From assembly GCA_903884505.1 (NCBI GenBank), contig CAISET010000030.1, forward strand, positions 29,701 through 93,700: 64,000 nucleotides of DNA. Direction: 5' to 3'. The translations under genes and the position numbers were made by a program. The notes beneath the pieces are model-generated. The model saw only the letters and a list, made by a program, of their open reading frames with translations. It searched no databases and was not told the DNA's origin. Shown here piece after piece: positions 1,633-59,930 of this stretch (its first letter is position 1; every line of letters begins with the position of its first letter). This DNA is from an uncultured Candidatus Micrarchaeota archaeon. GTDB lineage: Archaea > Micrarchaeota > Micrarchaeia > Burarchaeales > Fermentimicrarchaeaceae.

Positions 1633-1669
1633 AAGCTACTCCGTCAATCATGACCTTTCGGTTCATCCT

Positions 1670-1991
1670 GGGACGGTGCGATCATCGCCGGCTAATACTC
1701 TGATTCGCAACTTTAAAAACAAGCCGGAAGCCGTGGAGGTTCAGGAACCAAGGATGTCCGACCGAGGAGCGAAGCGACGACCGAGGACACCATTGGTTCT
1801 GATGGGACGGTGCGATCATCGCCGGCTAATACTCTGATTCGCAACTTTAAAAACAAGCCGGAAGCCGTGGAGGTTCAGGAACCAAGGACGTCTGCGGGAG
1901 GAGCCCGCGACAAGCTTCGCCCCGTGGGGCGAAGGTGTCCCTTTGCGCTGAAGCGCAAAGAGGACGACCAAAGACACCATTGGTTCTGATG
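1670..1991 (+). repeat. Tandem duplication of an ~88-bp unit. Each unit carries a TTTAAAAA promoter-like box and is followed by a hairpin-module cassette closed by GAACCAAGG...CCATTGGTTC.
   Basis: Unit copies sit at ~1670-1758 and ~1804-1892 and are near identical. Cassette 1 is ~1745-1803 and cassette 2 is ~1878-1991. Cassette 2 contains the palindromes cttcgccccgtggggcgaag and ctttgcgctgaagcgcaaag. Both end with gacaccattggttctgatg. Confidence 0.7.
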
Positions 1992-2026
1992 CAGGCTTTT
2001 AAATTCCCACCGAGAATTAACCGCCC

Positions 2027-9212: not shown

Positions 9213-9895
9213 AAGCGGTCGAAGTCATCCTTCCCAATCTTCTCGCAGGCATATTGGTAATGGATTGCCAGCAAATCTCCCGGCTTTACTTTGTCAACCA
9301 TCGAAATATTAACGTTTCTCAGGCCAAGCGGGGTGGAGACTAGCGCGTTGGAGCCGTCAATCTTCAGGGCCTTCGCCGGGAGGATGCGGCAGTTCGCCCT
9401 GTCCTCAACAACATCGTCGTGGTCGAACCAGAAATGCCGGCGGATTGAGGATTCATCCATGAGCGGAAGGCTGAGGCGCGAGGCAGTGATGCCGAGCCGC
9501 TCAACCGCTTTCTCAAAAAGGAGCGGTGATTCCCTGGGAACTCCGCCATTGAGGAGTGACTTGCGGACAGATGCGAGCTGCGCGGGTTTTATTCTTCCCT
9601 TCGCAACTAAAACTTCGCCGCAGGGATGCGCGTAGAGGAAGAAAAGGCGGAGCGGGGAGGCAGATGCCTTTTCGCCATTGCCTTCTTGCTTCAGCGCCGC
9701 CTTCCAAGCGGAAAGGGCCTCTTTCGCCTCCTTTACGCCAGCTTTGTCTACTACGAAGCCGCCCTGTACGTAGACATAATCGCCAGGCTTCAGCTTAATG
9801 CCGTCAGTTCTCGCAATTCTTTTCTCGCCGAAATAGTCTATGGTCGCAAGGTTTCCGCTGACTTTCTCCACTTTTCCCGGAATCGACTGGCACAC
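9194..9895 (-). CDS. Tandem HypC/HupF-like hydrogenase maturation chaperone (two HypC-like domains fused)
   Basis: N-terminal 'MCQSIPGKVEKV...PGDYVYVQGGFVV' (HypC signature with MC start). Second half 'CRILPAKALKIDG...VKPGDLLAIHYQYACEKI' repeats the fold. Confidence 0.55.
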   Translation of the reverse strand: MCQSIPGKVEKVSGNLATIDYFGEKRIARTDGIKLKPGDYVYVQGGFVVDKAGVKEAKEALSAWKAALKQEGNGEKASASPLRLFFLYAHPCGEVLVAKGRIKPAQLASVRKSLLNGGVPRESPLLFEKAVERLGITASRLSLPLMDESSIRRHFWFDHDDVVEDRANCRILPAKALKIDGSNALVSTPLGLRNVNISMVDKVKPGDLLAIHYQYACEKIGKDDFDRLWKVKK

Positions 9896-9940
9896 GGCAT
9901 TCCTTTCGGCAGCCGGCTATTAATTGGTTTGGGGGTAGAG

Positions 9941-10060
9941 GGAACCAGCGATGTTGCCGAGCAGGGCGAGGCAACAGGCAGTCGCCAACGAAGTTGGCGA
10001 TGCGCAACGTGAGTTGCGTAGTTGTCGCCGAAGGCGACTTGAAGCCATCGGTTGGTTCCT
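9941..10060 (+). repeat. Hairpin-module MITE-like element (copy C), with GAGGGAACCAGCGATG...CATCGGTTGGTTCCTC inverted termini
   Basis: ~100 bp near-identical to the reverse complement of 20975-21072. Contains the hairpins gtcgccaacgaagttggcgat, gcgcaacgtgagttgcg and tcgccgaaggcga. Confidence 0.75.
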
Positions 10061-10546
10061 CTAAATTCTGTCCCCGAAGAAGTCGATTAACAGGTGAAGG
10101 AGGTAGCCAAGGGCGGCGAAAACGCCCACGAGCAGCGAATCATCTACTGAGAGATTGAGAAGAAGAAGGAAGGCGAAAACCAAAATTCCCCAGAGGAAGG
10201 CCGCTGACCACGAATGCATGACGCCGCGGTGGCCCGGGATGGAGAGTTCGGCAAGGGCGAGCAGCAGGAAGGGAAGGAAGAGCGCAAGGAGCGGGGAGAT
10301 TGCCGAGAATGTGGAGTAGAAGAGGACTACAATCAGGATTCCGAGCAAAAACACGGCAAGCCGGAAAGCCCTCCTGGGTTTTGATTTCCTGCTGTCTATG
10401 TCAGGCAGGAGCGAGCTGATGATGAAGACGAGCGAGGCAACGGCAGCGGTGGGGACTGGAAAGCCATGCATCTCGGCGATGAACGCGGATATGAATACTG
10501 CGCCAAGTATTCCGCCGATGAAATGCTCCCGAAACCCGGTCTCCAC
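10061..10546 (-). CDS. Membrane-bound metal-dependent hydrolase-like protein (DUF457/YdjM family)
   Basis: 161 aa polytopic, with conserved His/Asp 'LLPDIDS' and 'HLLIDFFGD'. Confidence 0.5.
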   Translation of the reverse strand: METGFREHFIGGILGAVFISAFIAEMHGFPVPTAAVASLVFIISSLLPDIDSRKSKPRRAFRLAVFLLGILIVVLFYSTFSAISPLLALFLPFLLLALAELSIPGHRGVMHSWSAAFLWGILVFAFLLLLNLSVDDSLLVGVFAALGYLLHLLIDFFGDRI

Positions 10547-14346: not shown

Positions 14347-14362
14347 AGCTTCTTCTCAACCG

Positions 14363-14600
14363 AGAAACCCCCGATGCGCAGGTTTGAGTCGCCTTCGGCG
14401 ACAGCTGCGCAACTTCTGTTGCGCATCGCTCTTCGTTGCCAACGCGATTTGCGCTCGTTGCGCAACAAGCATCGCCCTTTGGGGCGATGATGCCCCCTTG
14501 TGCTTTCGCACAAGGAGGGATGCGTCGCTGTTCGCCCGCTGGCGAACATGCGAACGAACTCGCTCGCCGCGCATATCGTCGGTTTCTACGTTACTTCCGG
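14363..14600. mobile_element. Hairpin-module MITE-like element (copy D) flanked by an 18-bp direct repeat that duplicates the AMMECR1 gene 3' end
   Basis: Direct repeat TYAGAGYTTCTTCTCAAC at 14343-14360 and 14601-14618. Start of D matches the reverse complement of the 3' part of copy C (agtcgccttcggcgaca...gcgcaact...gttgcgcatcgc). Confidence 0.7.
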
Positions 14601-18300: not shown

Positions 18301-19612
18301 TGATGAGGCCGGTCTCATTCCCGAGGCGCGCTTGGATGCTTTGAAGGGAAAGCTCGCGGACGCCCGCGGCCTGCTCGACAGCCAGAAATGTATGGAGGCG
18401 ATAGCGGAACTGAAGGGGCTCAGTGCGGACGCGCAGAAAGCAGCCAAAGACTCGCAAATTCAGGAGACTGCGAGGGCAGGTTACTACGATGAATTGGCGC
18501 AGTTTAAGAAGGAGAAGGCGGCGCTCGGGAATCTGCACGATGGGCTCTTCTCCGCGGGCTTGGACAGCGAGGCACGCAAAGTACAAACTGCGCTCGATGC
18601 TGCGGGCGAATCCGAGGATGAGGCGGCAGGGCTTGCGGACGATTTGAATTTTGGCTCCGCAAAGGCGAAAATTTCCGACGCGCGCAAGTCGCTCCATGTC
18701 GACCTTTCGGGCCCGCTCAACAACAGGGTGGAGTCGCTTTCCAAGGAGGCTGACCTGCTGAATAAGCGGGGCCATGCCCTTTCGCTCCTGGACAATGAGG
18801 CAAACCTCAGCGATTTCCAGGTGGAACTCGCGGGAATCCGCTCGTCCATCTCCGATGCGGACTATTCTTCGGCAGCAACCGGCATCGCGGGACTGAACCG
18901 CTCGCTTTCGGCAAAGGAAGGCGAAACGGACGCGGGCTTCGGCCGGCTTGTCCCGGAGTTCGAAGGCTATGCGCGCGAAGTCTCCGAATTGAAGATAGTA
19001 TTCGGGGCGAACTTGGTGGAATTCTCAAAATCTTCGAAAAACGAGACCATCCTGGGGCAGGCGAGAAACGATTTGGCCGAGCTCGGCAGGCTCGATTCCC
19101 TGCTCTCAAACTTCTCGAGCTCCCCGGAGAAGCCGAAGTTCCTAGAGGCGAACGCAGAGAAGCTCGCAGGGATAAGCGCGGAGATCGCCACGCTGAACGG
19201 CACGAGCGCCAGCCTCGCCCAGGCAACGCAGGCCTACGCCAAGCTCGCGAACAGCTCCTTCTCGGAGGCCAGCCTGAAGCTCGAGCAGGCGCGGAAAATA
19301 GTCCCTGCAAGCGGGCAATACGCGGATAGGCTGCAGAACCTCACCTCAATCCTCAGCGATGCCGAGTCCGCACTCACTGCAAACAATTACGCGGATGCGG
19401 CAGTCCTTTCGGAGAAGGTAAGGGCGGGGGCGGAGCTGCTGCTTTCCGCAGCCTCGCAGGTCGAGCAGAAGGAGGCGGGCGCCGGCTTTTCGTTCCAGCC
19501 GGTCTATCTCCTTCTTCCGCTCCTCTTCTTCCTCGCGCTCGGCTACGTCTTCCTGAAGAAGAGGCCCGAGAAACCGCAAGAGGCCAAGCCAATCCAGCGC
19601 CTAGAATTCTAA
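15389..19612 (+). CDS. Giant alpha-helical, coiled-coil-rich surface protein with signal peptide and C-terminal TM anchor
   Basis: Probable start 'MSTSVNSAKWFLLAALLLAGMACAAG'. C-terminus 'FSFQPVYLLLPLLFFLALGYVFLKKRPEK'. AT-rich TATA region upstream contains the palindrome gaggtggttgcaccacctcag. Confidence 0.65.
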   Translation: MSTSVNSAKWFLLAALLLAGMACAAGNSDIPESYNRFWEGPNTGLFPCITNLPLLNLEKTDVMDAPAIARLELPAGFSAVREKMQNASEKIKAAKEGSVRFLGISFLIFEVGEKVRLYADGNPYPMLASTTFCGMSEESADIWIITEPAMYWKCHELWQANEQACKAMGDSLDALQAAAYASNDARDAAASHLETLGRMGADYGNYSGSARGVYSDSKEALEADPIIAFNGSREITLRYDDQAPRFAAAYVSAYDVKTAFENGSAQFERPDSYAAAIDLMAGRDENLVTGWAAVYWNIDSAISGMESEWNGSERAADAEYSDADSAVAALEEDGYSKITADLISNFSEAATGPIHGSFNAAPPDERVANARAMLQGANANITEARRLSNAEYEEDYLARAIETSQRAHSSITSAKSMAEEAKAEVEEIISAADGLYGLKSSEVRSAIDSFSTETPGSARLKANAETDYREAVGLAATARAGTSGKHLAGLAAALGKLESAKLWLSDENVSIAIRRDAARDELARLNATLNKAEHDGIGVTSERDWLNNAMQGRDSGTAEDMENFKEKAELAEEEVYAKAAAQFGYLDWQVSALDSTISAIRSYRSILGSAAELEAKFREFDELKRNYASGGTLVPEKALGHYLEIADKLDAISQEVESNKAKMIQEMMEKSARYDVAWEGEPILDEEMSALVSVRLANELPFGTNSSLSVSIPGDFPSGLSVVSKDAAIFSVDATGTKITAYFTSVSAGSAYSISLKGSGAEPARSVGRQQGNITSLHEQELVGSETLEFEALRDLDRLAIPMEIPEGTGRLSAEMENGRVAEVVNSDGMALVSAERVRKGRGSVTLAYHIPNPYLVTEGDAEVRKIDNLTARITYNVTVSSRAMDLSDVPVLIFVQNVSGEEGVSVRGLDGASLRNFEQQPSQGGVSVSWSIRSLGKGESATYEVSYAISDPGEYAEWFYSQDALLINSLDEAGLIPEARLDALKGKLADARGLLDSQKCMEAIAELKGLSADAQKAAKDSQIQETARAGYYDELAQFKKEKAALGNLHDGLFSAGLDSEARKVQTALDAAGESEDEAAGLADDLNFGSAKAKISDARKSLHVDLSGPLNNRVESLSKEADLLNKRGHALSLLDNEANLSDFQVELAGIRSSISDADYSSAATGIAGLNRSLSAKEGETDAGFGRLVPEFEGYAREVSELKIVFGANLVEFSKSSKNETILGQARNDLAELGRLDSLLSNFSSSPEKPKFLEANAEKLAGISAEIATLNGTSASLAQATQAYAKLANSSFSEASLKLEQARKIVPASGQYADRLQNLTSILSDAESALTANNYADAAVLSEKVRAGAELLLSAASQVEQKEAGAGFSFQPVYLLLPLLFFLALGYVFLKKRPEKPQEAKPIQRLEF

Positions 19613-19662
19613 CAAGAGCATTCGCATCCCGCAAAGAATTCGCGGGCAGCGCATTCGCGAGC

Positions 19663-19832
19663 TCAGCAGGAAAACTCGCATAACCTTTCTTTGGTGTCGC
19701 CCTTCGGGACGAATTCGCCTTCGGGCGAAATGTCCGCGTCCGAGACGCGGACGCTCCTCGCCATCCAGCAGGGGCTCGTCGCTCGACATCCTAAGAAACG
19801 TTAACGAAAGAATTCAGCAGGAAAACTCGCAT
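19663..19832. mobile_element. Small hairpin-rich element (G) flanked by the 19-bp direct repeat TCAGCAGGAAAACTCGCAT, which duplicates the 3' end of the Cas4-like gene
   Basis: Direct repeats at 19663-19681 and 19814-19832; both encode 'CEFSC*' on the minus strand. Internal hairpins tcgccttcgggcga and gtccgcgtccgagacgcggac. Confidence 0.55.
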
Positions 19833-20494
19833 CCTTCCCTGAATTCACAGACAAGGCATTTCGCAGGCTCCCCGCACGCGAGCTCCCTCCGCTCGAATCT
19901 TCCCTCAAGTATTCCCGCAAACCTTTCAAGCCTGGAAGCCACAAACCCCGCGTCGAACGGCTTGGGCTCTCCTTTTCCAAGTGGATGCCTTCCCAGCAAA
20001 TCCCGCTCGATTATCCGGTAGTAGATATCGAAGCCGCGCAGGACTCCCTCCCCGAGTTCCCTTCCCCTCACCCTCATAATCCCGTTCGCCAGCCCGTTGC
20101 AGTAAGCGGACAGCTGGCATTCGTATTTCCCCGAGAACAGCCCGCCAGCCCTCGATGTGAATTTCTCATCGCAGACAACAACCGACCTTCCGAATTTCAG
20201 CAGCTTGTCGAGCCTTCCGGAGAAGGTGAGGCCGCCAAACGCAAATCTCACGCTCACCGCCTCATTCGGGAACTCGAGCGCGCTTCCCTCGTCCTGCAGC
20301 CGGCGCAGCAGTTCATCAACGCTGACAGCCTCGTATTCCTTCTCCGCATCCTCCTCCGCGGAGATGGCATGCTGCCTAGTGCCAATTGCCACGCAGGGGC
20401 GGAAGTGCGGCCTCCTTTCCTCAAGAAAATGATAGACGGGCTTGAGGCCGCAGAACTCCACGTCCGCGAATTTGGAGATAGGGACGGCTCTCAT
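19814..20494 (-). CDS. Cas4-like / RecB-family PD-(D/E)xK nuclease with Fe-S Cys cluster (DUF83-like), standalone
   Basis: N-terminal Cys ('FCGLKP'), 'GRLDKLL', 'VVVCDEKF', QxxxY motif ('QLSAY'), C-terminal 'CGEPAKCLVCEFREGC'. Confidence 0.65.
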   Translation of the reverse strand: MRAVPISKFADVEFCGLKPVYHFLEERRPHFRPCVAIGTRQHAISAEEDAEKEYEAVSVDELLRRLQDEGSALEFPNEAVSVRFAFGGLTFSGRLDKLLKFGRSVVVCDEKFTSRAGGLFSGKYECQLSAYCNGLANGIMRVRGRELGEGVLRGFDIYYRIIERDLLGRHPLGKGEPKPFDAGFVASRLERFAGILEGRFERRELACGEPAKCLVCEFREGCEFSC

Positions 20495-20497
20495 AGC

Positions 20498-20623
20498 CTA
20501 TCCGACCTTCAGCTCAAGCCGCGCCCCATTCCGCTGTATGACGGCTCCGGTGCTCACCCTTTCCAGCCTCGCAATCAGCTCCTCCAGCTGGTCGAACGTC
20601 AATTCGGTCACATCCATTTTCAT
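20498..20623 (-). CDS. Small 41-aa protein immediately upstream of the Cas4-like nuclease
   Basis: 'MKMDVTELTFDQLEELIARLERVSTGAVIQRNGARLELKVG'. RBS gaggtgagggca precedes the ATG. The longer ORF call runs through repeat element E and is unlikely. Confidence 0.4.
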   Translation of the reverse strand: MKMDVTELTFDQLEELIARLERVSTGAVIQRNGARLELKVG

Positions 20624-20627
20624 TGCC

Positions 20628-20780
20628 CTCACCTCGGAACCCCGGTTGGCGCTGCGCTCGCTTGCGCGACCACGCAACACCTTCGGTGTTGCGCAAACGC
20701 ACCTTCGCTTGCGCCATATCCAGTCGCCTCCGGCGACTGCCTGTTGCGCGTTGCGCAACATCCTCGGTTCCTGAACCTCC
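20628..20780. repeat. Hairpin-module MITE-like element (copy E)
   Basis: GGAACCCCGGTTGG...CCTCGGTTCC termini. Modules gcgcaacaccttcggtgttgcgc and gtcgcctccggcgac. Ends ggttcctgaacctcc, as copy F does. Confidence 0.7.
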
Positions 20781-20829
20781 GTGAGCTGGTGCTGGACTGC
20801 TTTTAAAGAAGGGGAAGCGCACGTGGTTT

Positions 20830-21080
20830 CCAGTAAGAACCAATGGTTGGCATCCTCGCTGGCGCTCGTTGCCATATCCGGTCGCCTCCGGCGATTGATT
20901 TCGCCTTGCGGCGAAAGCTGTCGCTTTGCCGCGGGCAAAGCGCCATTGAGTCGCCTTCCGGCGACAGCTCAAATCGCCTGCGGCGATAACTGCGCAACTC
21001 ACGTTGCGCATCGCCAACTTCGTTGGCGACTGCCCGTTGCCTCGCGCTGCTCGGCAACATCCTTGGTTCCTTAACCTCCA
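20830..21080. repeat. Hairpin-module MITE-like element (copy F, longest; about seven tandem hairpin modules)
   Basis: GAACCAATGGTTGG...CCTTGGTTCCTTAACCTCC termini. 20975-21072 is the reverse complement of copy C. Modules gtcgccttccggcgac, gctttgccgcgggcaaagc, tgcgcaactcacgttgcgca and tcgccaacttcgttggcga. Confidence 0.75.
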
Positions 21081-21087
21081 CGCAAAA

Positions 21088-21597
21088 TCAGGGCTCTGCG
21101 CTGAACTCGTCCGCCTCGGTCAAATCAACGACTTCCCCAGCGCTCTGCAAGCCTTTCCCAACATAGACGAGCGAGGATGAGAACACGATGCGGTAAACGC
21201 CGTTGAACTCCTCAATCTCGCTCTTCATCATCCTCAAATATTTGTGTAGGGTCTGCGGGGAAATCTTAGTCTCCTTCTGTATCTCGTTGAAGGTCTTGGC
21301 GCGGGACTTGAGGCAGTTCCTCACCATCTGCTTCATGTCCTCGTCAGAAACAATATACTCCTCGGTCGCGAACTGCAGCTTCTCCTGCACGGACTCTATC
21401 CTCTTCGTTATCTCGTCCCTGCTCAGCACATCGCAACTTTTCAGCTCGCGCAGCTCCCTGAGGATGTGGTGCGCGCTCTCCCTCTGCGCGCCATCGAGCC
21501 GCTTAACATGCGCGGAAAGCTCCTCCAGCTTCCCGGAGACGCCGTCATTCCCGTTATTTTCCTTTCTCGCGCCGAACAGAATGTCCAATAAACCCAT
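21088..21597 (-). CDS. Hypothetical protein with C-terminal winged-helix-like region
   Basis: 169 aa; 'KTFNEIQKETKISPQTLHKYLRMMK' HTH-like segment. Confidence 0.4.
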   Translation of the reverse strand: MGLLDILFGARKENNGNDGVSGKLEELSAHVKRLDGAQRESAHHILRELRELKSCDVLSRDEITKRIESVQEKLQFATEEYIVSDEDMKQMVRNCLKSRAKTFNEIQKETKISPQTLHKYLRMMKSEIEEFNGVYRIVFSSSLVYVGKGLQSAGEVVDLTEADEFSAEP

Positions 21598-26319: not shown

Positions 26320-26459
26320 CGCGAGGTTTATAAATTCCCACTTCCCCAATACAGTCCTGCTCATTTTACTGTCGTAGATGAGCTTGATGAACCCCCAACG
26401 GGGGATTCGCAACATGCGAGCATGTTGCGGGTTTGCACGGGGGGCGAGGGTGATTTCAA
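26320..26459 (+). promoter_or_regulatory. Promoter (TTTATAAATT) plus structured 5' leader of the L7Ae operon, with a tandem GATGA...GATGA (C-box/K-turn-like) motif and palindromes
   Basis: TATA at 26327-26336. gtaGATGAgcttGATGAacc at 26374-26393. Hairpins cccccaacggggg and gcaacatgcgagcatgttgc. Confidence 0.4.
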
Positions 26460-26978
26460 ATGGCAAAGGGTTACGTGGAATTCGAGACTTCGAAGGAGCT
26501 CCAGGAGAAGGCCTATCAGGCCATAGAGATGGCCAAGGACACTGGAAGGCTCAGGAAGGGGATGAACGAGGCGACTAAGGCCGTTGAGAAGACCGGCTGC
26601 GCACTAGTCGTAATCGCCGAGGACATTGACCCGCCTGAGGTCGTGATGCACCTGCCAGGGCTCTGCAGGGAGAAGAAGATTCCCTTCATGTATGTTGCTG
26701 GGAAGAAGGAGCTCGGCAAGAGCGCGGGCCTAACTGTTCCCTGTGCTGCTATCGCGATCGAGAAGCCGGGGAACGCTCAGGACCTTGTGAACGAGATAGT
26801 CGCGGGCCTGGGCGGAAAGGGCAAGAAGGCCGAAAAGAAGGAGGAGGCCCCGGTTGAGGCGCCTGCGGCAGAGGCTCCAGCGGAGAAGCCCAAGAAAGAA
26901 AAGAAGCCCCGCGTGAAGAAGGAGAAGCCCGCTGAGGCGAAGCCAGCAGAGATTAAGCCTGAGGAGGCAAAGGCCTAA
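26460..26978 (+). CDS. rpl7ae: Ribosomal protein L7Ae with an unusual C-terminal K/E/A/P-rich ~50-aa tail
   Basis: '[51 protein letters not shown]', followed by '[44 protein letters not shown]'. Confidence 0.85.
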
Positions 26979-27957: not shown

Positions 27958-28242
27958 ATGGCAATTGAGGAACCAATGGCAAGCGCGGCGCCCAGGACGG
28001 GAAGGCCGCCAAGGGAAGAGTACGAGACCATCAAGGTCGAAACCGTGAACTACGGGACCAACAACTTCATCGAGGTCTCGAAGAAGAAGGCGCCGAACGG
28101 CAACCTCTTCATCTCCGTGTCCAAGGGCTGGTACCCTACGGGGAGCACCGAGAAGAGGTACAGGGCGGGCGTCGGCTTCCCGAACGAGAAGGAGCTCATT
28201 GACCGCATAATGGCGGCATTCGACACCGTCCTGACGGAGTAA
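27958..28242 (+). CDS. Small hypothetical protein (94 aa)
   Basis: ORF in operon position after ndk, followed by an oligo-T tract. Confidence 0.4.
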
Positions 28243-56968: not shown

Positions 56969-57068
56969 GAACTGAAGACTTTGCCCACAGAAAGGCGGTT
57001 TTGAAGCAAACATTTATAATATACAAATTGTTTATTATTGCGTGTTTTCTGAAAGTGTGACGCAGAGG

Positions 57069-57644
57069 ATGTTGAAGGCTGTCGAGGGCTCCCCATCAGG
57101 GATTGCCCGGCTCGACGTCTTGGAGAGCCTGGGCTTGTGCAGCCCTGCCACCCTGAAGATAACATTGAGCAGGCTCGGAAGGAGCGGGAGGATTATCCGG
57201 CTGAAGCGGGGTGTGTACTCTGCAAGCCCCATCCGTGACGCATTCGCCTCCGCGCAGGCGGTTTTCAACGGGTACGTCGGCTTTTCGGCCGCCCTCTACC
57301 TGCATAGGCTCATAAGCGAGGTGCCCTTCACTGTGGCCGTGGTCACGGGGAGGAAGTCAGGCGTGAAGCGCATCGGGAACTACGAATTCAGGGCAGTTGC
57401 CCTGGGCGGCAAGGCAGTTGGCTTTGAACGGAACGGGCCATACGTGGTATCGACCCGCGCGAAGACGTTGTTTGACTGCCTTTACCTGCCTAAATATTCG
57501 GTCGAGCAGGAGAAGCTTGTCGCGGCATTTCGGGAAGCGCGCCTTGGGGCGGAAGAGCGGCGCGAGTTCACGGGCTATGTGAAAAAGTTCGCCTCGGGGA
57601 AGACCCGCGCAAAGATGCTGAAGGCAGCAAAGCTGTTGTGGTGA
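57069..57644 (+). CDS. abiEi: AbiEi-like antitoxin / transcriptional regulator (type IV toxin-antitoxin)
   Basis: N-terminal wHTH, C-terminal AbiEi_4-like region. Alternative GTG start at 57042. AT-rich promoter catttataatatac upstream. Confidence 0.55.
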   Translation: MLKAVEGSPSGIARLDVLESLGLCSPATLKITLSRLGRSGRIIRLKRGVYSASPIRDAFASAQAVFNGYVGFSAALYLHRLISEVPFTVAVVTGRKSGVKRIGNYEFRAVALGGKAVGFERNGPYVVSTRAKTLFDCLYLPKYSVEQEKLVAAFREARLGAEERREFTGYVKKFASGKTRAKMLKAAKLLW

Positions 57645-57648
57645 TGGA

Positions 57649-58434
57649 ATGGTTGAAATCAATCTGGAGGCTTGCAGGGTGTTGGCAATACAGCACGGGC
57701 TCCCGCTGCAATTCCTTGTGAAGGAGTTCTGCGTGTTCGATGTGCTGGGCCAGGTTGTGATGTTCACGGCTCCGTCGAAACGCCTCATCTTCAAGGGTGG
57801 CACCGCGCTGAACAAAGTCTACCTGGGCGGCATGCAGCGGTTCTCCGAGGACCTGGACTTCGATTTTGATACTGAGAATATAAGCGAAGCCCGTGCGGAA
57901 GCGCAGCGAATCTCCGAGCACATCGAAGGGTATCGCATCTCGGATTTCAGAACGGTCAGGCGAACGGTGCAGTTCGATTGCGAGTATGACAGCCCGCTGG
58001 GCGGAAAGGACCACGTGCGGATTGATGTGGCTGCGAAGAGAATAATTACGGAAAAGCCTCCGCTGGTAAAGCCAGCCGTTTCTGCCTACACGCAGCGTTT
58101 CGTAACCGGATTTTACGTGTATGCTCTCGAAGACTTGGTTGCGAGGAAGCTTCACGCGCTCCAGACCCGGGGCGAAGGGAAAGACATCTATGATGCTTCC
58201 AATGCCCTTCCGCTGTGCGGCAAGATGGAGCACGCGCTCCAGAAGATGCTGGAATCGGAAAAGCGGCCGGACACTCCGACTGAGTTCATTAGAACGACCA
58301 TCAAGAAGGTTCAAGCGGCAGACCCTAAGAGGCTCCGCAACCTGGCAAACCCTTTCATCCCTGCGGGCAACCGCCCGAAGGACTGGCTCGAACTGAAAAA
58401 TGACCTCCTGCTTAGGCTCGAAAAGCTGGTATAG
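57649..58434 (+). CDS. abiEii: AbiEii-like nucleotidyltransferase toxin (DUF1814)
   Basis: 'FKGGTALNKVYL...QRFSEDLDFDF' NTase signature. 4-nt spacing from abiEi. Confidence 0.65.
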   Translation: MVEINLEACRVLAIQHGLPLQFLVKEFCVFDVLGQVVMFTAPSKRLIFKGGTALNKVYLGGMQRFSEDLDFDFDTENISEARAEAQRISEHIEGYRISDFRTVRRTVQFDCEYDSPLGGKDHVRIDVAAKRIITEKPPLVKPAVSAYTQRFVTGFYVYALEDLVARKLHALQTRGEGKDIYDASNALPLCGKMEHALQKMLESEKRPDTPTEFIRTTIKKVQAADPKRLRNLANPFIPAGNRPKDWLELKNDLLLRLEKLV

Positions 58435-58487: not shown

Positions 58488-59930
58488 GTGATTTCTGTGG
58501 TTGAACTGAAAGCTCTTGGGCCTGCGAAGTGGGAGATTCCCCACGAGGGCAAGATTCCTGTCTGGCTTTACGCGAACAAGCAGCTAGCGGAGAACATGGG
58601 GAGGGACCGGACGCTCTGGCAGGCGCAGAACGTGGCGAAGCTGCCGGGAATCATAAAGGCAAGCGAAGTGATGCCGGACGGGCACGAGGGGTATGGCTTT
58701 CCGATTGGAGGGGTAGCCGCCTTTGACATGGAAGAGGGAATCATCTCGCCCGGCGGAGTCGGTTATGACATCAACTGCGGAGTTAGGATGATTCTGACGA
58801 ATCTGACTGCCGCAGATGTAAAACCGAAAATCGGAGAGCTGATGAGCAAGCTTTTCCAGAATATTCCTTCCGGGGTCGGAAGCAAGGGGAGAATCAGGCT
58901 TACAAGGGAGGAGCTGGCTGCGCCGCTCATGGAAGGCGCGCAGTGGGCAATTGAGAAAGGGTACGGATGGAAGGAGGATTCGGAGAGAATTGAAGAGAAC
59001 GGAAGGATGGAGGGCGCGGACCCGGCCAAATGCTCGGATATGGCGATGAAAAGGGGAGCGCCGCAGTTCGGAACTCTGGGAGCGGGAAACCACTTCCTTG
59101 AAGTGCAGAAGGTGACCGAGATTCTGGACGAGAAGGTGGCGAAGGCGTTCGGAATCACGGCGAAGGACCAAGTCGTGGTGATGCTGCATTGCGGAAGCAG
59201 GGGATTCGGGCACCAGGTCTGCGACGACTATATCCGCGTGATGCTGCAGGCTTCCGAGAAGTATGGCATCCCGCTTCCTGACAAGGAGCTATGCTGCGCG
59301 CCTATCAATTCCAAGGAGGCGCAAGATTATGTGGGCGCCATGTACGCGGCAGTGAACTATGCCTTCTGCAACAGGCAGGTCATGACGCACTGGATTAGGG
59401 AGACGTTCCAGGACGTGTTCAAGAAGGCGCCGGATGCGCTCGGGATGCATGTTGTTTACGACGTCTGCCACAATATTGCGAAATTCGAGGAGCACAAGGT
59501 TGATGGCGGAGTGAAGAAGGTCTGCGTGCACAGGAAGGGCGCGACAAGGGCTTTTGCAGCGGGAAGGAAGGAGATTCCGCAAATCTACCGCAGCGTTGGG
59601 CAGCCGGTCATCATCCCAGGAAGCATGGGGACTGCAAGCTATCTTCTCGTGGGAACCGAGGGAGCGATGGTGGAAAGCTGGGGAAGCACGTGCCACGGCG
59701 CGGGAAGGACGATGAGCAGGCATGAGGCAATCCGGAGATACCCTGCGCAGATGGTTGAGGGCGAACTGGAGAAGAAGGGAATCGTTCTCAGGGCGACTGG
59801 GAAGGAGATTATTTCCGAGGAGGCGAGCGGCGCATACAAGGACGTTTCCGCAGTCGTCTCCAGCGTGCAGGAGGCAGGCCTTTCAAGGATAGTCGCAAGG
59901 GTCGAGCCGATGGGAGTCGCGAAGGGATAA
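58488..59930 (+). CDS. rtcB: RNA-splicing ligase RtcB
   Basis: 480 aa with 'GYDINCGVRM', 'GAGNHFLEVQ', 'HCGSRGFGHQV', 'STCHGAGR'. Confidence 0.9.
   Translation: MISVVELKALGPAKWEIPHEGKIPVWLYANKQLAENMGRDRTLWQAQNVAKLPGIIKASEVMPDGHEGYGFPIGGVAAFDMEEGIISPGGVGYDINCGVRMILTNLTAADVKPKIGELMSKLFQNIPSGVGSKGRIRLTREELAAPLMEGAQWAIEKGYGWKEDSERIEENGRMEGADPAKCSDMAMKRGAPQFGTLGAGNHFLEVQKVTEILDEKVAKAFGITAKDQVVVMLHCGSRGFGHQVCDDYIRVMLQASEKYGIPLPDKELCCAPINSKEAQDYVGAMYAAVNYAFCNRQVMTHWIRETFQDVFKKAPDALGMHVVYDVCHNIAKFEEHKVDGGVKKVCVHRKGATRAFAAGRKEIPQIYRSVGQPVIIPGSMGTASYLLVGTEGAMVESWGSTCHGAGRTMSRHEAIRRYPAQMVEGELEKKGIVLRATGKEIISEEASGAYKDVSAVVSSVQEAGLSRIVARVEPMGVAKG

Follow-up and report, generated by a model that had tools for sequence, protein, structure and literature searches.

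A candidate BOX/REP-like modular repeat family in Micrarchaeota, including a tandem duplication beside a [NiFe]-hydrogenase gene

BOX elements of Streptococcus pneumoniae (boxA-boxBn-boxC) have pairing ends, boxA and boxC, around a variable number of independently folding modules, and vary in length between strains (PMC3049150). They are co-transcribed; new insertion is slow, and positions are largely conserved between relatives (PMC3049150). REP-like palindromes have been reported across archaea (PMC12306157). The element considered here was found in a 64-kb stretch of DNA (64,000 nucleotides of contig CAISET010000030.1, hereafter the window) from an uncultured Candidatus Micrarchaeota archaeon, placed in that group by its protein neighbours. 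Two copies lie within a tandem duplication at 1669–1991, between dus (a Pfam Dus gene on the minus strand, with its ATG at 1587) and the gene for a [NiFe]-hydrogenase small subunit (GTG at 2027). The hairpin cassettes in this duplication very probably belong to a dispersed repeat family. With moderate confidence, this is taken to be a new, Micrarchaeota-specific modular family of BOX/REP-like character, mostly co-transcribed and folding as RNA.

The duplicated locus and the repeat family

The duplication is head-to-tail with a period of 134 nt, in units 1669–1802 and 1803–1991. The units are identical through nt 86, the first mismatch falling at 1755/1889; identity is 95% across the 102 nt of 1669–1770 and 1803–1904, and 93% over the 29-nt unit tails (1776–1804 and 1963–1991). 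The borders share the microhomology GGTTC(A/T). Exactly two occurrences of CGCAACTTTAAAAACAAGCCGGAAGCCG (1706 and 1840) are present, against 0.00 expected, and both units carry the TATA-like TTTAAAAA (1712–1719 and 1846–1853) with a CGCAAC resembling a transcription factor B recognition element (BRE) immediately 5′ of it (CGCAAC-TTTAAAAA at 1706–1719 and 1840–1853). About 25 nt beyond TTTAAAAA in each unit is a cassette running from GAACCAAGG to CCATTGGTTC, 55 nt long in the first (1745–1799) and 108 nt in the second (1879–1986), or 61 and 114 nt if the extra TCAG/CTGA pairs are counted. A third CCATTGGTTC, at 27970, is a chance match within a coding region. The 134-nt duplication and the hairpin arrays both go unreported by Tandem Repeats Finder.

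Both cassettes fold much better than shuffled controls, with a minimum free energy (MFE) of −22.9 kcal/mol for 1742–1802 (z −3.9) and −59.2 kcal/mol for 1876–1989 (z −5.7), whereas no structure is seen in the 73-nt spacer (z +1.0; +0.98 unrounded). The second cassette has three hairpins, at 1894–1908 (GCGGG-AGGAG-CCCGC, loop AGGAG), 1915–1934 (loop CGTG), and 1941–1960 (loop TGAA), the latter two being perfect over 8 bp. An earlier note, made from the letters of this DNA alone, had described most of this arrangement: near-identical tandem units each with a TATA-like box, cassettes closing into a terminal helix around hairpins, two perfect palindromes in the second cassette, and a hydrogenase promoter close to its end. 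All of these hold, the last as a TATA-like box 7 nt past the element. The note's cassette lengths of 59 and about 114 nt were slightly generous for the cores, the longer one matching the count with TCAG/CTGA pairs included.

When the cassette 5′ end is extended upstream it becomes a 23-mer, GGAGGTTMAGGAACCRAGGATGT, with four occurrences in the window against 0.00 expected, two of them on the minus strand at 21079 and 20780. A perfect-hairpin scan of the window gave two diverged relatives, 9931–10062 (+) and 14596–14361 (−), for a total of six copies (1735, 1869, 9931, 14596−, 20780−, 21079−), all within the first 21 kb; profile searches of the window with both family ends gave no others. The copies (W1 to W6) and the features between and beside them are as follows.

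1669–1734, plus strand: spacer S1, with CGCAAC at 1706–1711 and TTTAAAAA at 1712–1719; identical to 1803–1868, and outside the repeat family
1735–1802, plus strand: W1, a short type A copy; 5′ box 1735–1757, terminal helix 1741–1759/1785–1802, interior degenerate
1803–1868, plus strand: spacer S2, the duplicate of S1, with TTTAAAAA at 1846–1853
1869–1989, plus strand: W2, type A; 5′ box 1869–1891, terminal helix 1875–1893/1972–1989, three hairpins
1996–2005, plus strand: TATA-like box CTTTTAAATT of the hydrogenase gene, 7 nt after W2 and 22 nt before GTG 2027; the gene appears leaderless
9931–10062, plus strand: W5, type B, with a diverged 5′ box GGGGGTAGAGGGAACCAGCGATG; between ydjM and hypC, antisense to both; MFE −64.5 kcal/mol, z −5.4
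14361–14596, minus strand: W6, diverged, about eight hairpins, closed by AGAAACC/GGTTTCT; starts about 4 nt after the AMMECR1 stop codon
20634–20780, minus strand: W4, type B; runs straight into the Shine-Dalgarno sequence and ATG of a 42-codon open reading frame (ORF) and a PD-(D/E)XK nuclease gene
20781–20833, minus strand: W3-W4 spacer, with the block ACTGGAAACCAC, a pyrimidine tract, and TTTAAAAG
20834–21079, minus strand: W3, type B, about eight hairpins; starts 8 nt after the stop codon of a 169-aa ORF (21088–21597)

Seven further copies come from four or five related Micrarchaeota genomes or metagenomes. A scan of GTDB genomes gave two, both in the uncultured Candidatus Micrarchaeota metagenome-assembled genome bin-2344; a metagenome scan gave four contigs representing two loci; and tracing of RadA homologues added two genomes with a copy at the same site. 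The genome and metagenome scan pattern required AGGAYGT/AGGANGT and missed diverged copies (e.g., that in L025), and the family range is underestimated accordingly. Relatives with 70–77% identical Dus or KARI had no copy across ~45 kb by this strict pattern, nor was an element found in two relatives linked through KARI, in 4.7 kb of one (87% identity) and 9.7 kb of the other (77%).

Outside the elements, the other family loci have no DNA in common with the window. The copy that precedes radA in bin-2344 (L006) matches W2 at 93% identity, and W4, which has TTTAAAAG 19 nt upstream, is 78% identical to L005; an identical 67-nt copy is found at two loci of one metagenome (L008, L009). Tandem pairs occur at three of nine loci. 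Neighbouring genes in the window are dus and the hydrogenase (W1, W2), ydjM and hypC (W5), AMMECR1 (W6), and, for W3 and W4, a winged helix-turn-helix-like ORF and a small ORF with a PD-(D/E)XK nuclease operon; in the relatives they are radA (four genomes), tRNA-Gly(CCC), and tRNA-Ala. RadA is 82–87% identical among the four genomes in which the radA-upstream site is occupied. At that site two of these genomes have a type A interior, and the remaining two have one that is type B or degenerate, with an intact 5′ box. Multiple dispersed intergenic copies adjoining unrelated genes are what is expected of interspersed structured repeats, and because the family is dispersed in this way W1 and W2 are a better fit to a BOX-, REP-, or MITE-like element (MITE, miniature inverted-repeat transposable element) than to a specific small RNA gene.

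Paired ends and variable interior

Each element has three parts. The 5′ box, GGAGGTTMAGGAACCRAGGAYGT, is nearly invariant, and a 15-mer, GGAGGTTMAGGAACC, is invariant among all canonical copies, which come from five sources. The 3′ box, CCAWTGGTTCTKA, pairs with the 5′ box, forming a terminal helix in which some 16 bp are interrupted by a single bulged base on either strand (TCA[G]GAACCAA-GG[AU]GUCY with RGAC[A]CC[A]UUGGUUC-UGA). Between them are zero to eight perfect G+C-rich hairpins, with stems of 5–9 bp, giving copies of 55–235 nt; the extremes are the 54–55-nt cassettes of W1 and M9b and the roughly eight hairpins of W3 and W6. Interiors have been swapped, expanded, or shrunk among copies. 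Conserved paired ends around a variable modular interior are again characteristic of interspersed structured repeats.

The terminal helix is maintained by compensatory changes, and its structure is thus under selection. When the helix ends of 12 copies were compared, 83% of cells were paired and 5 of 12 pairs had double changes, a result reached by none of 500 shuffles. TCAG/CTGA is replaced by TAAG/CTTA, GGAACC/GGTTCC by AGAAACC/GGTTTCT, and TCA/TGA by AGAG/CTCT with the bulged G kept; in this last case the outer helix of W5, AGAG[G]GAACC/GGTTC-CTCT, covaries with the canonical TCA[G]GAACC/GGTTC-TGA. The nine differences between W2 and L006 comprise two compensatory pairs, one change of G-C to G.U, and otherwise changes in loops; none breaks a pair. 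The z-scores of folded copies range from −3.9 to −5.7.

The two strands are not equivalent. On the strand set by the 5′ box, 94 of 113 hairpin loop bases are purines (83%), with purine-rich GNA and GNRA caps (GAA seven times, GGA three times, GNRA tetraloops six times). This sense strand has 54 GGA against nine TCC and 25 GGAG against a single CTCC, and it folds better than its complement in 9 of 11 copies. Because loops and linkers are purine-rich on one strand only, it is the single-stranded form of that strand that matters, and this is most likely RNA.

Transcription and alternative explanations

In the mechanism proposed here, which is given at most an even chance, the elements would act in cis as co-transcribed RNA. 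At the DNA level, recombination or conversion among copies, gain and loss of hairpins, or some transposition mechanism would let them persist, spread, and diversify. Transcription would be mostly within neighbouring transcripts, in 3′ untranslated regions after stop codons, in 5′ leaders, or in pre-tRNA leaders, although at 1669–1991 it might start from the duplicated TATA box instead. The RNA would fold into an extremely stable closed structure, at a predicted −0.5 kcal/mol or so per nt, which would protect or delimit transcript ends as a 3′- or 5′-end stabiliser, or as an insulator between packed units, rather than work in trans.

The clearest arrangement of this kind is in L009, where the order is gene stop codon, 3 nt, element, element, and an intron-containing tRNA-Gly. 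With no promoter-like box between the gene, the elements, and the tRNA, the elements must be part of a longer precursor. The tRNA-Gly(CCC) (1952–2078, with a 52-nt intron) is fused to the element 3′ end, and was found by ARAGORN only in the intron search, not by default. W4, running into a Shine-Dalgarno sequence and ATG, is in the position of a 5′ leader, and four of the five copies in tandem-gene contexts are co-oriented with transcription.

Several points weigh against this reading. Transcription, RNA ends, and effects on neighbouring genes are all inferred, and the comparison covers only 11 distinct full copies, all from one narrow clade. In the stems, 96% of pairs are Watson-Crick, and each strand has 22 G.U pairs; this would suit DNA palindromes just as well, so that stem composition cannot tell the two nucleic acids apart. 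The ~60 ORFs scanned in the window include no transposase, integrase, or reverse transcriptase. Nor is any direct repeat common to the flanks of 12 copies, and since no target-site duplication is visible mobility is deduced only from distribution. From another direction, the invariant 5′ box and the occupied radA site suggest a stronger functional constraint than would be expected of a merely selfish repeat.

The literature searched contains no description of this family or of such repeats in this lineage, and the family is therefore regarded as new. DPANN genomes such as those of Micrarchaeota are very small and streamlined, and a repeat found at about one intergenic region per 3–10 kb in part of the genome is unlikely to be neutral baggage; its terminal helix is under selection and its loops are strand-specific. 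If the elements are co-transcribed RNA structures, they would mark transcript boundaries, and might account for the delimitation or stabilisation of mRNAs and tRNA precursors in organisms that do not grow in culture by themselves. Were they mobile or recombinogenic, they would serve as markers, and possibly drivers, of gene-order differences between close strains. On a practical level, they break short-read assemblies and generate spurious ORF calls, ORFs of 45–125 aa having been called across them. Several public contigs end inside elements, spurious ORFs of 45–167 codons arise from elements on both strands (window 1682–1819, 1810–1989, and 20498–21017), and public gene calls include ORFs of 69–125 aa spanning W4.

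The earlier note had instead read the two cassettes as candidate small RNA genes. In general form, each copy would be an independent trans-acting gene with its own BRE/TATA, its RNA serving, for example, as a scaffold or sponge that displays Shine-Dalgarno-like GGAGG/GAGGAG and GNRA/GNA loops to a protein or the ribosome. At this locus the fit is good, with the elements structured and terminally closed and CGCAAC-TTTAAAAA 25 nt before GAACC in both units, suitably spaced for transcription start at ~1742 and ~1876. Elsewhere, TATA-like boxes lie 12–21 nt before the 5′ box in W4, M8a, and M8b, W4 and M8a sharing TAAAAGCAG about 20 nt upstream, and M8a could be expressed only from its own promoter, the upstream gene being divergent and the downstream tRNA convergent. 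The purine-rich loops are strand-specific, the 5′ tail (GGAGGU) is invariant, type A copies share a conserved GAGGAGC...GCGACGAC, and a pyrimidine or T tract follows several copies.

The promoter, however, is not part of the repeated entity, and an upstream TATA box is not a family feature. Instead of a fixed BRE/TATA at about −26 in all copies, the distance from TATA-like box to element varies from 5 to 32 nt among 13 family copies (15 nt before the 5′ box in W1 and W2, 19 in W4, 21 in M8a, 12 in M8b, 32 in G6, 5 in W5). About half the copies (W3, W6, G5, M9a, M9b, R25) have no such box, where the note's reading would have had the boxes conserved. Five of these start 3, 4, 6, 8, or 32 nt after a co-oriented stop codon (M9a, W6, R25, W3, and G5, respectively), and the sixth, M9b, abuts M9a and a tRNA gene. 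Conservation between copies does not extend to the interior, on which an RNA working in trans would rely; W1 has no oligo-T terminator directly after it, and there is no Rfam match. Independent small RNA genes are therefore considered unlikely as an account of the family, with discrete transcripts from a subset of copies, such as M8a, being possible.

The origin of the promoter-bearing spacer bears on the same question. Among all the DNA compared, the spacer with the TATA box occurs at this locus only. The 66 non-coding nucleotides upstream of dus at 1625–1690, which include the left 22 nt of S1, are 86% identical to L018 1–66, DNA that lies upstream of Maf-Dus genes clustered in a relative with Dus only 70% identical. 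With its left end conserved upstream of such a distant dus, the spacer appears to be ancestral flanking DNA caught in a local duplication. TTTAAAAA is nearly symmetric, and reading it on the minus strand puts the box 22–25 nt upstream of a conserved ATG (1683) of a short ORF leading to dus. The box here may thus be the dus promoter, or bidirectional, which counts further against a dedicated small RNA promoter. The minus strand of 1625–1690 reads as a short ORF, MIAPSQDEPKGHD followed by a stop codon, as compared to VIAPSQDEPRGYDMRSSL and a stop codon in L018, with synonymous changes; the same segment also holds a hairpin with one compensatory change. Like the hydrogenase small-subunit gene (TATA at 1997–2004), hypC (GTG at 9895, minus strand) looks leaderless, with a TATA-like sequence at 9919–9927; in both, the box is ~22–25 nt before the start codon.

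The note had suggested orthologous dus-hydrogenase spacers in relatives as a comparison, but the synteny is not conserved: relatives with 70–75% identical Dus have Maf-Dus, without the element. In a strain with 98% identical Dus (P0001), a co-oriented gene overlaps the dus start, replacing the elements and the hydrogenase operon. The element-bearing junction thus coincides with a gene-order difference, in comparison to both the close strain and the Maf-Dus relatives.

A second alternative is a purely DNA-level element, in which the bulged helix and hairpins would be a single-stranded or cruciform substrate for a recombinase or transposase, in the manner of attC, IS200/IS605, or REP-RAYT, and any transcription would be incidental. 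The Watson-Crick stems without G.U strand bias are in keeping with this, as are the many C(GNA)G triloops, including GCGAAGC, a loop type that is exceptionally stable in DNA. The conserved 1-nt bulge on each strand and the variable centre resemble attC architecture; copies are found where strains differ in gene order and in tandem pairs, interiors are swapped, and W5 is antisense to both neighbours. Set against these are the lack of any integrase, transposase, or HUH/Y1 gene in the 64 kb, ends that misfit the attC R″/R′ consensus (RYYYAAC/GTTRRRY), mixed orientation with no cassette array, and flanks free of target duplications. The purine asymmetry covers all unpaired linkers, as expected of negative design in RNA, and the co-orientation with transcription noted above also favours an RNA. 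A role confined to DNA is accordingly given a low probability.

It is similarly doubtful, but worth keeping in view, that the elements are a previously undescribed class of archaeal structured RNA, with the bulged terminal helix and a free Shine-Dalgarno-like GGAGGU 5′ tail as the recognition or processing platform for a fast-evolving array of GNRA/GNA hairpins. In that case selection would keep them at particular positions, namely directly ahead of the radA promoter (at least four genomes) and in fusion with tRNA genes. They might serve as a sponge for a protein or for ribosomes, as the carrier of an outward promoter or operator block (ACTGGAAnnCAC...TTTTAA), or as a protector of RNA ends, which could be indispensable to a DPANN cell whose RNA-decay toolkit is reduced. 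The reading is retained because of the conserved bulged helix, the GGAGGU tail, the purine loops, retention at radA, and the ACTGGAAnnCAC...TTTTAA block.

The block itself is an invariant ACTGGAAnnCAC followed by a 12–14-nt pyrimidine tract and TTTTAA, directly after the 3′ box, in the window (20781–20833, minus strand), L005, L006, L024, and L025. In the window it stands before the nuclease operon, and in four related genomes before radA. One possibility is that it makes up a long 3′ variant of the element, with an outward promoter or terminator; another is an operator common to two DNA-repair loci.

Returning to 1669–1991, the remaining question is whether the duplication could have arisen during assembly, as an artefact of a repeat. 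Two contigs, L001 and L002, are broken within the repeat, and other assemblies (L003, L004, and ERZ1426834) have one unit with the long cassette only, although short-read assembly collapse is possible for these contigs. The two-unit form is nonetheless seen in L001, L002, and the gene table of ERZ1426812, so that the path S1-E1-S2(-E2) is present in three independent assemblies, the gene spacing in ERZ1426812 being 394 nt as in the window. The sequences of E1 and E2 also differ, and thus are not a collapsed or expanded identical repeat. An artefact is effectively excluded, and the locus reads reasonably well as a local 134-bp duplication, polymorphic in copy number, of ancestral spacer DNA and one copy of the repeat family, an interpretation held with middling confidence.

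Last and weakest, a series of small protein-coding genes, with GGAGG as Shine-Dalgarno sequence, AAGGATG as start, and a minimal product MSAGGACDDQRHHWF whose stop codon falls at the conserved CTGA, would account for the GGAGG and ATG of 10 of 12 copies and for a 54-nt two-hairpin insertion in W2/L006 that preserves frame, but W2 has ACG in place of the ATG and M8b lacks it, a 1-nt indel between W1 and M9b breaks the frame, the Shine-Dalgarno-to-ATG spacing is 14 nt, and substitutions are compensatory for pairing rather than synonymous, so that the chance of coding is effectively nil.

Rejected identities and other features of the window

The elements were compared to a range of known RNAs. 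Rfam 15 has no gathering-score match in the 64 kb, and for two loci gives only chance matches (E>0.8). ARAGORN finds no tRNA, tmRNA, or split tRNA in the window, in default mode or with introns allowed. A C/D box RNA (CTGATG...CTGA) was rejected on the grounds that the CTGA pairs and covaries with TCAG (TAAG/CTTA) and so is part of a helix; there is also no terminal stem, guide layout, or Rfam support. For H/ACA RNAs there is no ACA box after the lower stem, and the 3-nt bulge and tandem G.A pairs of a K-turn are lacking. The bulges, each of a single nucleotide, are separated by 7 bp, unlike the 3-4-3 arrangement of the bulge-helix-bulge motif for splicing or circularisation.

Mobile or extrachromosomal origins fared no better. 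Three IMG/VR matches to the 5′ motif are chance matches to Shine-Dalgarno-plus-coding sequence, and blastn against plasmids and phages gave no match. Integron attC sites were rejected for the sequence of the ends (TCAGGAACC...GGTTCTGA), the mixed orientation (+,+,+,−,−,−), and the lack of a tyrosine recombinase encoded in the window. REP-RAYT was rejected for its variable heads here (GTCGCC, GTTGCG, CTTCGCC, one GTAGCGC), the same orientation of tandem copies, and the lack of a Y1/HUH protein in the window, and a MITE because the required target-site duplication is not seen at the flanks of the 12 copies.

A few other structures in this DNA and its relatives appear distinct from the family. 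The leader (26376–26459, plus strand) of an L7Ae-family gene (26460–26978) has a perfect 9-bp hairpin, CGCAACAUG-CGAG-CAUGUUGCG, within a GGGGG/CCCCC helix (MFE −34.8 kcal/mol, z −3.5), and may be an L7Ae autoregulatory element. In a different repeat cluster, between two convergent genes at 19590–19900, the 19-nt TCAGCAGGAAAACTCGCAT is repeated exactly in direct orientation (19663 and 19814); the cluster also contains AGMGCATTCGC three times and has GC hairpins at 19700–19754. An AbiEi/AbiEii toxin-antitoxin pair (57042–58434) adjoins the gene for the tRNA-splicing ligase RtcB (58488–59930). In another Micrarchaeota relative (L017, 999–1044), three overlapping perfect intergenic hairpins are built on ACAAGT/ACTTGT, an unrelated repeat, which suggests that hairpin repeats are common in this group.

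Comparison with described elements

Among RNAs, the nearest parallels are protein-sponge small RNAs of the CsrB/RsmZ type, which likewise have arrays of short hairpins with purine-rich, GGA/GAA-type loops and Shine-Dalgarno-like sequences; the 5′ box contains CAAGGAUGU, which resembles the CsrA SELEX (in vitro selection) consensus. However, CsrA is bacterial, and no homologue is expected here (none was searched for); GGA is found in only 3 of 31 loops; AAGGAUG is in a helix and not a loop; and the Micrarchaeota copies are dispersed rather than confined to one or two genes.

Integron attC sites share the conserved paired ends with extrahelical bases, the variable centre, the widely varying length, and the strand asymmetry. 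They differ in that the ends here do not fit the R″/R′ consensus, there is no intI in the window and no uniform cassette array, and the flanking genes are housekeeping genes and tRNAs. The MITE-type ERIC and Correia/NEMIS repeats, which act on transcripts, have imperfect terminal inverted repeats and a highly paired transcript, occur next to genes in either orientation, and can adjoin or provide promoters, all as seen or predicted here, but the Micrarchaeota element has no target-site duplication, is not AT-rich, has no cognate insertion sequence (IS) in the window, and is far more variable in its interior.

REP/BIME and REP-RAYT sequences are, like these, short G+C-rich extragenic palindromes, clustered, found in 3′ untranslated regions, and proposed to stabilise mRNAs (PMC2817692, PMC3733652, PMC12306157). 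The hairpins of the Micrarchaeota element are instead enclosed in a larger terminal helix, its tandem copies have the same orientation instead of alternating, the hairpin heads do not follow GTAG/CGTC consistently, and the window lacks a RAYT gene.

BOX is not related to the Micrarchaeota element in sequence, and the host here is archaeal and G+C-rich. The modules are heterogeneous GNA/GNRA hairpins rather than a single boxB unit, the 5′ tail is invariant, single-stranded, and Shine-Dalgarno-like, the bulges are conserved, and no matching IS or transposase was found. Even so BOX is the closest analogue, as a dispersed intergenic element with pairing terminal modules, a variable, self-folding interior, and a very stable predicted RNA.

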